From NCBI RefSeq assembly GCF_000026545.1, contig NC_011601.1: a stretch of DNA of 64,000 nucleotides; one strand, written 5' to 3'. The stretch comes from Escherichia coli O127:H6 str. E2348/69 (lineage in GTDB: Bacteria; Pseudomonadota; Gammaproteobacteria; Enterobacterales; Enterobacteriaceae). Every line of letters starts with the position of its first letter. Within the stretch, counting starts at the first letter, position 1. Position numbers: made by a program. Shown in pieces: positions 16,083 to 19,000 of this stretch.

Positions 16083-19000
16083 AGAAGACCGTCGGTTTCC
16101 AGTGTAACCTGCTCCTGATTTGCTTTACGTAATGTGGATACAGTCCAGTCCTTGACCTCCAGAAATACCAGCCCGTTATCCGGGTCAATAATGACAAAAT
16201 CCGGATGTCGGTTTTTCCGTCCCACCGGGATATCGTACCAGACAAAGCAATCATCATTCAGAAAGCTCTCCAGTCGTGAAGCCACCCTCCTCTCCCCTGG
16301 CGTCATTCTCTCCTCAGTGGACGCTGATATATTTATCAGTTTCGCCATAACATACTCATGCTCCAGTAAAACCATAACCGTCGACATATTCCGTCTGAAG
16401 GGAATATGTCGAATACTTCATTAAAATACAAACATTTAGTAAACTTCACTACGCAAGTGCAATTATCCAGTCCCGTCTAATGATTAAAAACGATAACCAA
16501 CTCCAACAGTAAATCCATTGACCGAATGTTTTCCATATATATCTGCTTTAGTTCCCTCATACCCAACATTTACAGACATATTGCCCCACGGATTAATAAT
16601 AACACCAGCTGCATAAGCAAAATCAGTGGATTTTTTTGATACAGACTCACTTAAATATCCATCAGACTCATCAGCACCCACACTGTTTCTCCACTCATAA
16701 TCTCCCTTCGCTTTAGTATGAGATATCCCCACCAAACCATAAAAACTGATATAGTCATTCAGACGATAAGCTGGGCCTGCGAGAAATGAATAATATTTAA
16801 TATCAGCCTGATGTCTGTAAAAATCGTCAGCTTCATCGCGATGACTGTCCGCCCAATCACCTTTCATATACGAAAAACTCCCGACGACACTGACCGGAGA
16901 ATCCCACTCATATCGATATTGCAGATTCACTCCTTTAATATTCTTAAAGTCCTGTACCTTACTCTGAGCATAACCAGCCGATAGCGTATGATTATCAGCC
17001 AGTCTTGAACCACTCATAACAGATAATATCATTACTGAAATTATAACGAGTTTTTTTCATTTAACCCTCCTTCATTAATAAATGATTTCTGAAAATCAAA
17101 AAGGACCACACATCTCAAAAACATTATTTGAAATCATCATCAAAAAACTATAAATATATCACCTGACGATTTGAACACACTGACAAAAAACCAAGCATGG
17201 TAATAAACCGAACTCCCCACAAACTTCTGTTGCCTCAGATACTCCCCCCCCCTTTCCTCAGGCACAAATGTTGTTCCATAACGAACCAGCCCTGTTCCTT
17301 TAAACTCTGCATCAATGGCATAATGTATACTCACCAGACTGAGTTTGCTCCTGCATCATTATTTCGATACGTTAATGCATTGTTCATTGCATCCGGCATT
17401 CCCCATCGAATATTTACTTTGTTATATCAGGCAGCCCATAACCAGGTAAATTTTTAAGGCTTACTGACTGAATATTCAAAATGTGTTACATGTTATCAAA
17501 CCTTTAAAGAATAACCTGCTCTTCTTCATTGGCCGGATTTAGCTCAATCTTGTCAGCAAAACTAATATAAAGCCGTTCATAAAGAGAAGGATGTAGCTTC
17601 GTTATTTATCTTTTACATGTAACAGTGCCAGGGGATATTCCGCACATCTCTGTGGCTATCATCCCCACCACGTCTCCAGTGGCAGCACCTGCGGCACTGG
17701 CACGGGCGTTATTTCCCTGTACCACCGCCAGTGCAGCATTCACCACGGCATGGGCTGCCACATTTGCAGTCTTATTCACCACACCTGTAACCTGTCTCTT
17801 ATACACAAATCCCCACCCGGGGATTTGTGATGTCTGTCAGTCTGCTTTAGGGGGACTCTTTCCATCCGGTAGTTTCCTTCCTCCCCGGCAGCGATTTTTT
17901 GAACTTTTTCTTCACCCGTTGATCTTCTCTTATATTTCATTTTCTTCGGGTCTGTTATGGTACTTTCTGATTGTTATTCACTGGCTAACGAGCAGTCTGG
18001 ACATGCCCGTCTCGGTGATCCGCGTCGTACACGACGCCTTGTGTCACTGACCTCTTCTCTCGCTCAGCATGCAGGTCTTTCTATTGTGAAATCATCCCAC
18101 TTCACTGCTCAGGTTGAAGGTGCGTACCGCCTGATACGTAACCCGTCGGTGTCCCCGTAAGCCATTGCCGAAGCCGGATTTACTGCCACTGCAAGGGCAT
18201 GTGAGGCACATCCGCTGCTCCTCGCGCTGGAAGATACCACCACCATTAACTTCGGTCACAGTACGGCATTTGATGACCTGGGGAATACCACCACTAACCC
18301 GAAGACGCACGGGCTGCTGGCTCACTCTGTCCTGATGTACGCCCCCGACAGCGCCCTGCCAGTCGATCTTATCGAACAGCAGTGCTGGAGTCGTGCCACG
18401 GACACCTACGGTGTTAAGCACCAGCGAAAAGAACGTCCCTGTGAAGAAAAAGAAAGTTACCGCTGGCAGCAGGCTTCGGAGCGCATGGCCGAACGGCTGG
18501 GGGAGATACAGAAACAGGTAATCACTGTCTGTGACCGGGAAGCGGATATCTGGCATTACCTGCATTATAAAGTCAGCCGCGGGAAGCCACACGCTGAATG
18601 TGATGCAAAAAGGCGGGCGGGCAGCCCGCCAGGCCCGGATGCTCATCAGTTACAGCGAAGTCAGCATAAAAAATCCCGACAACAGCGGCCAGGCGCTCCC
18701 GCTCACGTATGTCTGTTGCCGGGAGCAGGCAGAGGACGGCGCCTGCTGGCATCTGCTGACGTCAGAAAAAGTGGCGAGTGCCGCCGATGCGCGACGTATC
18801 GTCAGCCATTACGAGCAACGCTGGCTGATAGAGGAATACCACAAAGCGTGGAAAAGTGGTGGTACATGTGTGGAATCGCTGCGAATGCAGACCCGGGATA
18901 ACCTTGAGCGCATGGTGGTTATCGCGGTGCGGGTGCTGGGCCTGCGGCAGGGAGGTATCAGTGAAGAAACACAAAATGACAGCTGTGAGAAAATACTGAC

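Follow-up and report, generated by a model that had tools for sequence, protein, structure and literature searches.

In the genome of Escherichia coli O127:H6 str. E2348/69 (contig NC_011601.1), a short open reading frame (ORF) of the minus strand begins at the edge of an insertion sequence (IS) and reads outward into the flanking DNA, raising the question of which gene, if any, it represents. The whole stretch of 64 kb analysed here is referred to as the window. The first-pass annotation of this DNA described a 66-aa frame starting with a GTG inside an IS50-like terminal repeat, a description with which both the ORF list and the match to the IS end agree, since the GTG (17804-17806) and the five codons MYKRQ lie inside the IS end. 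These five codons leave 61 residues of non-IS origin, instead of the 58 originally counted. The peptide encoded, according to the ORF list, is MYKRQVTGVVNKTANVAAHAVVNAALAVVQGNNARASAAGAATGDVVGMIATEMCGISPGTVTCKR. All public copies of this protein, retrieved by exact-sequence cluster and protein search, are labelled 'hypothetical' or 'uncharacterized', and Pfam and NCBIfam scans of the 66-aa sequence gave no match. The length of 66 codons is unremarkable alone; what stands above chance is that 17640-17792 is homologous to cdiA genes. The ORF is considered here, with a probability of about 0.9, to be a non-functional genomic scar composed of three unrelated pieces, namely an IS end, a fragment of cdiA and an out-of-frame end of tssJ (Table 1).

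Table 1. Features of the ORF and its surroundings, in window coordinates
Feature	Position	Strand	Details
Chimeric ORF	17606..17806	(-)	66 aa, GTG start (ORF list)
RefSeq annotation at the ORF			57-aa version from GTG 17779; hypothetical protein WP_001453071.1
Left terminal repeat, outside-end type	17792..17810	.	Supplies codons 1-5 (MYKRQ) of the ORF
Internal cdiA/filamentous-haemagglutinin fragment	17639..17791	(-)	~51 codons in native frame; residues 6-56 of the ORF
tssJ 3' end	17602..17638	(-)	Last ~9 codons and stop in the TssJ frame; DNA alignment with STEC313
tssE pseudogene (T6SS baseplate subunit)	17218..17590	(-)	Directly downstream of the ORF
Defective IS50-like IS (IS4/Tn5 family, ISEc13-related)	17792..19238	(+)	1447 bp, transposase split
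Perfect 11-bp hairpin just inside the IS end	17803..17830	.	Arms CACAAATCCCC / GGGGATTTGTG

Composition of the reading frame

The first piece comes from the insertion sequence. Its left end, the 19-bp sequence CTGTCTCTTATACACAAAT at 17792-17810, occurs once in the window against 0.02 occurrences expected by chance, and its right end, ...AGATCTGATCAAGAGACAG, is found at 19220-19238. We take the left end to be of the IS50 outside end (OE) type, with 17/19 positions matching, and the right end to be the IS50 inside end (IE), with 19/19; in a text search, both end strings were found in the Tn5 literature. Copies of the element in many unrelated genomes begin to match at window position 17792 and stop matching at about 19238, and the IS boundaries were therefore placed at these positions. 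RefSeq names the family as IS4/Tn5 or ISEc13, and a 231-aa ORF at 18531-19226 is similar to the Tn5 transposase (E=2e-30). Thus, the element resembles IS50 (Tn5) and ISEc13 in having 19-bp OE/IE-type ends and a transposase homologous to Tn5 Tnp. However, with a split transposase and no target duplication, it differs from them in being an immobile relic that marks a point of rearrangement: the transposase gene is broken into at least three ORFs (ORF list, RefSeq), and the transposase is probably inactive.

The 9-bp target duplication is absent from the two flanks of the element (ACCTGTAAC on the left and GTCAAAGAT on the right), which come from unrelated genes, the left one being cdiA and the right one the C-terminal remnant of an IS481-family transposase. 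A continuation of cdiA was looked for beyond the far side of the IS and was not found, the right flank being this IS481 remnant. Since the target duplication is missing and the right flank is unrelated, we infer that an IS-associated deletion or recombination took away the upstream part of the cdiA fragment. Additionally, when the minus strand of 17770-17850 was folded as RNA, a minimum free energy of -22.5 kcal/mol was obtained with an 11-bp stem, and the 3' arm of this hairpin on the minus strand contains the GTG of the ORF.

The second and largest piece was traced to cdiA. A megablast search with 17400-17795 against 5426 complete E. coli genomes matched 571 of them, and 17640-17792 aligned at 87-90% identity with genes annotated as 'hemagglutinin repeat-containing' or 'VENN motif pre-toxin domain-containing' (E=4e-48 and 1e-38). 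In E. coli STEC1587, the DNA of cdiA is 88% identical over 153 nt (blastn, E=1.6e-51), and at the protein level 44/56 residues (79% aa) are identical to residues 1954-2009 of a CdiA of 2279 aa, with ..VTGVVNKTANVAAHAVVNAALAVVQGNNARASAAGAATGDVVGMIATEMCG of the window aligned in frame to ..VTGEVNKAANVAAHAVVNAALAVAQGNNALAGAAGAATGEVVGMIATQMYG of CdiA. The possibility, raised earlier, that homologues would reveal a noncoding frame is contradicted by this alignment, as cdiA reads the stretch in the ORF's own frame. Despite the 79% identity, the compositionally adjusted BLASTP E-value of the ORF with the 2279-aa CdiA was no better than 0.001, and the DNA-level E-values are the stronger evidence for the link. 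A word-indexed protein search yielded no full-length CdiA but only 19 small fragments, all unnamed and devoid of Pfam domains, so that the link to CdiA rests on the DNA searches and on the direct alignment.

The architecture of CdiA has been described as SS-TPS-FHA1-RBD-YP-FHA2-PT/VENN-CT (PMC9086364), and the fragment falls after the FHA-2 repeats and ahead of the VENN motif. In the STEC1587 protein, the VENN motif lies at residue 2056, 47 residues past the point at about 2009 where the homology ends, while the match to PT-VENN (PF04829) begins ~5 aa past the end of the fragment; the ORF escapes the Pfam and NCBIfam profiles because the fragment ends just short of PT-VENN. Therefore, the piece had been wrongly regarded as a C-terminus, since it matches residues ~1958-2009 of the 2279-aa protein, which are internal and precede the VENN motif at 2056. 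It is an inner part of a giant toxin-delivery protein and not the end of a small one. The segment 17639-17791 shares with CdiA, a member of the TpsA-type filamentous haemagglutinin family, in-frame homology to the stretch just upstream of PT-VENN; however, only ~51 of more than 2000 codons are left, and it is a pseudogene fragment rather than a CdiA.

The third piece derives from tssJ, whose 3' end supplies the last ~10 codons and the stop of the ORF (17606-17638) in a register one base away from that of TssJ, giving ISPGTVTCKR before the stop codon. In the ORF tail, CGISPGTVTCKR, G57 still matches CdiA and the sequence is tssJ-derived from I58 on: after ..EMCG, the window proceeds to ISPGTVTCKR and the stop, whereas CdiA continues with KPVSELSETEKQ... 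A sensitive DNA search with 17230-17660 aligned 17250-17633 with tssE and the end of tssJ in intact type VI secretion system (T6SS) clusters, which in STEC313 have the order tssF-tssG-tssJ-tssE, and in the DNA alignment, cdiA-like sequence gives way to tssJ-like sequence around a CGG common to both, at about 17638-17641. The TssJ C-terminus, ..LTLLPVKDK and stop in STEC313, is encoded in the window as ..LALLHVKDK and stop at 17631-17605, in a frame one base off that of the ORF; therefore, the last codons and the stop of the ORF are an out-of-frame reading of tssJ, and the tail is not native to cdiA. Downstream, the tssE pseudogene is 48% and 60% identical to the STEC313 TssE in two frames (tblastn, E=1.9e-26) and carries three in-frame stops, an internal deletion and a frameshift, in agreement with RefSeq, which labels the region as a frameshifted TssE pseudogene. 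Intact tssJ and tssE frames are thus absent from the locus, the former having been cut to ~9 codons and the latter disrupted. Considering the three pieces together, the frame is open only by chance: the GTG of the IS end happens to share the frame of the cdiA codons, and a stop is provided by the tssJ tail, read out of frame.

The STEC1587 locus and the order of the truncations

The homologous site of STEC1587 carries no IS, and its gene order comprises the 2279-aa haemagglutinin-repeat protein, an 85-aa immunity-type ORF, an orphan VENN fragment and then a 2.7-kb haemagglutinin-repeat pseudogene, whose last part is the homologue of the ORF. The 2279-aa protein, with 12 matches to the fil_hemag_20aa repeat (NCBIfam) and a PT-VENN domain (Pfam PF04829, E=1e-18), has CdiA architecture, and the pseudogene carries Fil_haemagg_2 repeats (E=3e-63); a search of solved structures with the C-terminal 523 aa of the STEC1587 CdiA gave no match. 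The search for an intact homologue suggested in the first-pass annotation, together with a look for microcin or immunity neighbours, was thus productive, since it led to cdiA genes with an adjacent immunity-type gene, the 85-aa ORF of STEC1587. The notion of a bacteriocin-like small protein survives only in part: the parent is loosely a bacteriocin-like toxin, but it is a CdiA exoprotein of more than 2000 aa and not a small glycine-zipper protein or microcin.

The 2.7-kb pseudogene ends in the identical ..EMCGISPGTVTCKR and stop at the junction with tssJ, and its end, ..GMIATEMCGISPGTVTCKR and stop, is followed by the same tssE remnant. Since STEC1587 keeps this identical junction while lacking the IS, the 3' truncation (cdiA::tssJ) is older than the IS event. 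Truncation at the IS, as first proposed, was therefore half of the picture: the ORF does preserve what is left of a genuine coding gene that has lost its 5' part at the IS boundary, but the 3' side had also been truncated, at an earlier time. Among complete E. coli genomes, no IS-less copy of exactly the window's allele was found. In addition, the window's allele is a mosaic, as 17763-17791 is closer to the main cdiA than to the orphan copy of STEC1587, which fits recombination among cdiA copies.

Orphan cdiA-CT/cdiI modules were described by Poole et al. 2011, in the summary given in PMC9086364, and the fragment resembles them in tracing back to a cdiA fragment that has no promoter and lies downstream of a main cdiA, an arrangement of which STEC1587 preserves a fuller form. 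On the other hand, orphan modules begin at or near VENN and contain a toxin and an immunity gene, whereas the piece in the ORF lies wholly upstream of VENN and has neither.

The sources and frames of the three pieces, the positions of their junctions and the relative order of the two truncations are shown by the alignments, while the mechanism of deletion and the absence of function are deduced from them. A sequence of three events may account for the present structure. At first, the island at tRNA-Phe would have contained both a cdiBAI locus accompanied by orphan cdiA fragments and a T6SS cluster whose last genes were tssJ and tssE. A deletion would then have fused one cdiA copy, ~47 codons before VENN, to the last ~30 nt of tssJ, with the presumed loss of the VENN motif, the toxin domain and the immunity gene of that copy. 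Later, an IS50-like element may have landed in or beside the fragment, and an IS-associated deletion or rearrangement would have stripped away everything upstream, leaving ~51 cdiA codons.

Island context and the marker Z4322

The ORF is part of a well-studied pathogenicity setting. The gene order at the locus runs from tRNA-Phe and an integrase through ISEc8, a truncated NERD/exonuclease gene, an Ail/Lom (pagC-like) gene and the tssE pseudogene to the ORF, the IS, the IS481 remnant, espL2, nleB and nleE, and the window segment 9997-26158 is colinear with O157:H7 PV15-279 at 99.6% identity. The locus is the island OI-122. The cdiA::IS junction (17560-18010, with at least 80% of the length aligned) was detected in 414/5426 complete E. 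coli genomes, including O157:H7, O55:H7 and O111. About 79 further genomes, of the 90-95% identity class, have the tssJ junction without the cdiA::IS junction. The open frame itself is shared by more than 400 genomes (413) at an identity of 99% or higher, an observation that counts against reading it as a scar, though it is expected from recent clonal spread.

Real-time PCR primers giving a 104-bp amplicon have been published for the ORF Z4322 of EDL933 (PMC4763077). Both primers match the window exactly, at 17637-17658 on the plus strand and at 17721-17740 on the minus strand, for a product of 104 bp. Since both fall inside the ORF and give the published amplicon size, the ORF is Z4322, and the locus agrees with the OI-122/SpLE3 island of EHEC both in its identical gene order and in the position of the Z4322 primers. 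In the passages of PMC5852577 and PMC3153230 that quote Wickham et al., Z4322 is assigned to 'module 1' of OI-122 together with pagC and is stated to be commoner in HUS-associated non-O157 STEC. The same passages treat Z4322 as a putative virulence gene or marker with no assigned function, whereas in the present analysis it is an IS/cdiA/tssJ chimera. The boundary between module 1 and module 2 (Z4322/Z4323) coincides exactly with the IS end at 17791/17792, and its position at a defective IS end fits the modular, transposase-mediated assembly of the island proposed in the literature.

The identification of Z4322, the marker ORF of OI-122, as such a chimera is a modest new point, since the kinds of element involved, namely a cdiA pseudogene fragment, T6SS debris and a defective IS within a well-studied island, are all known, and nothing mechanistically new is implied. 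It does call for a correction of annotation, as the 'hypothetical protein' of hundreds of EHEC genomes is better described as a pseudogene scar than as a candidate virulence factor, and it places the worth of Z4322 as an OI-122 marker in STEC risk-typing PCRs in linkage only. Additionally, the scar would record part of the history of the island, in which module 1 of OI-122 was formerly next to a T6SS cluster and a contact-dependent inhibition (CDI) locus.

Expression and alternative readings

No feature that would allow the ORF to act in a CDI system was encountered. Tblastn searches of the 64-kb window with CdiA, the immunity ORF, a TPS fragment and a POTRA fragment gave nothing further; the ORF, which starts in the IS end, is devoid of a signal peptide and of the TPS secretion domain. 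The FHA-1/FHA-2 repeats (PF05594, PF13332, TIGR01731), which the parent proteins carry, are absent from it in the Pfam and NCBIfam scans, as are the VENN motif and the CdiA-CT toxin. Neither cdiB nor cdiI is adjacent, the downstream neighbours being the tssJ tail, the tssE pseudogene and the pagC-like gene, and the upstream neighbour the IS. On the minus strand upstream of the ORF, a crude consensus scan for promoters and terminators found nothing, with no sigma-70-like promoter in 17807-18100. A product of 57-66 aa, if made through some low-level translation, would have no signal peptide, TPS, repeats, VENN or toxin, and would be expected to be neither exported by CdiB nor toxic. Most likely, the ORF has no mechanism at all and is an accidental frame across two deletion/insertion junctions.

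The reading from which the analysis started, in which the non-IS residues are the true C-terminal end of a small protein (glycine-zipper, microcin or bacteriocin-like) that lost its N-terminus to the IS, draws on the Gly/Ala-rich composition with GxxxG-like spacing and on the fact that the 5' side does stop at the IS. It now has next to no probability, as the homologous stretch forms residues 1954-2009 of a 2279-aa protein that continues into PT-VENN and a toxin domain, the last ~10 residues are tssJ out of frame, and the neighbours are tssE and pagC-like genes, with no microcin, immunity or export genes adjacent. A free-standing small gene with a native C-terminus was also considered and rejected, the homologues being either internal to giant proteins or small unnamed fragments without Pfam domains. 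It could also be supposed that the fragment is kept as a homology arm which, like the orphan cdiA-CT modules, recombines with full-length cdiA to swap toxin ends. Orphan cdiA-CT/cdiI modules are a familiar feature downstream of cdi loci (PMC9086364), and the mosaic of the allele in relation to the two STEC1587 copies implies that recombination among cdiA copies has occurred. However, such modules typically start at VENN and carry the toxin and cdiI (PMC9086364), whereas the present piece stops ~47 codons before VENN and gives way to T6SS debris, so that recombination through it would only destroy a cdiA. Moreover, the median number of matching places per carrier genome is one, so that a second copy is missing from most of them, and maintenance as a homology arm is regarded as highly improbable.

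A function acquired after the chimera had formed deserves separate consideration. According to this proposal, Z4322 would be a de novo small gene whose translation, from the GTG of the IS end or the one at 17779, yields a hydrophobic peptide rich in Ala/Gly, for instance a membrane-active one, and this peptide would contribute to the association of OI-122 module 1 with fitness or virulence. Although more than 400 genomes conserve the open frame, and G-rich Shine-Dalgarno-like sequences precede both GTGs, this conservation reflects clonal descent at 99-100% identity and has no depth to reveal selection. Additionally, no promoter-like site was seen upstream in the crude consensus search, the start codon is sequestered in the hairpin, and the tail is an accidental out-of-frame read. 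The epidemiological link of Z4322 with HUS-associated strains, as quoted in the passages of PMC5852577 and PMC3153230, would also favour a functional gene; however, physical linkage with pagC and nleB/nleE leads one to expect such an association, and linkage to the rest of OI-122 explains the association of Z4322 with HUS more simply than a function does. A de novo gene is thus very unlikely. There is a scant chance, in particular, that the chimera is translated into a peptide of 57-66 aa, rich in Ala/Gly, with an acquired membrane-active or signalling activity contributing to the association of module 1 with severe STEC disease; if true, a functional Z4322 peptide would document the birth of a gene de novo from the debris of two interbacterial-competition systems. 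For the scar reading, the persistence of the ORF is explained by the youth and clonality of the EHEC lineages that carry it.

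Remnants flanking the IS50-like element

Since no target duplication flanks the IS50-like element, its position is that of a rearrangement joint between modules of OI-122. On its right side, the IS481-family remnant is directly followed by espL2, after which nleB and nleE are found in the colinear genome. The EspL2 frame corresponds to the ShET2/sen-like gene Z4326 of OI-122. On the left side, the tssE of the type VI secretion relic is decayed by stops, a deletion and a frameshift. E. coli STEC313 (L005) presents, in the same context, intact tssF-tssG-tssJ-tssE upstream of the 3'-5' exonuclease/NERD gene. 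Additionally, the NERD-domain gene of the window, labeled partial in RefSeq, only begins to match the intact STEC1587 and STEC313 genes at 15552.

Features of the joint region and of the plasmid cdiA scrap
Feature	Coordinates	Strand	Remarks
NERD-domain/3'-5' exonuclease gene	15431-16387	-	cut by IS66-family element; junction near 15552
Type VI secretion cluster relic	17218-17638	-	last ~9 codons of tssJ and badly decayed tssE
141-aa ORF	17625-18050	+	antisense to cdiA fragment; crosses IS boundary
Perfect 11-bp inverted repeat	17803-17830		CACAAATCCCC / GGGGATTTGTG; just inside IS50-like end
IS481-family transposase	19239-19900	+	frameshifted C-terminal remnant; right flank of IS50-like element
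549-aa ORF	20020-21669	+	T3SS effector EspL2 by annotation in colinear O157:H7 genomes
133-aa cdiA scrap, independent	11766-12167, L003 (plasmid pEF7-18-58_1)	-	

Relatives of the cdiA fragment

In the intact STEC1587 homologue (L002, 15727-16400, minus strand), the CdiA-CT past VENN is Gly/Ala-rich, and none of the solved structures matches it; it may be one of the ionophoric CDI toxins, which have been described (PMC11630599). The pEF7-18-58_1 scrap starts at nearly the same point as the window fragment (..TGEVNKVANVAAHAVV..), has a truncated PT-VENN domain and is flanked by IS3 elements. IS-bounded debris from this part of cdiA is recurrent.

Reading frames across the IS boundary

The GTG of the 66-aa ORF falls within the inverted repeat, which, by analogy with IS10/IS50, may block translation of read-through transcripts. 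The 141-aa ORF is almost certainly an artefact of a GC-rich antisense frame.
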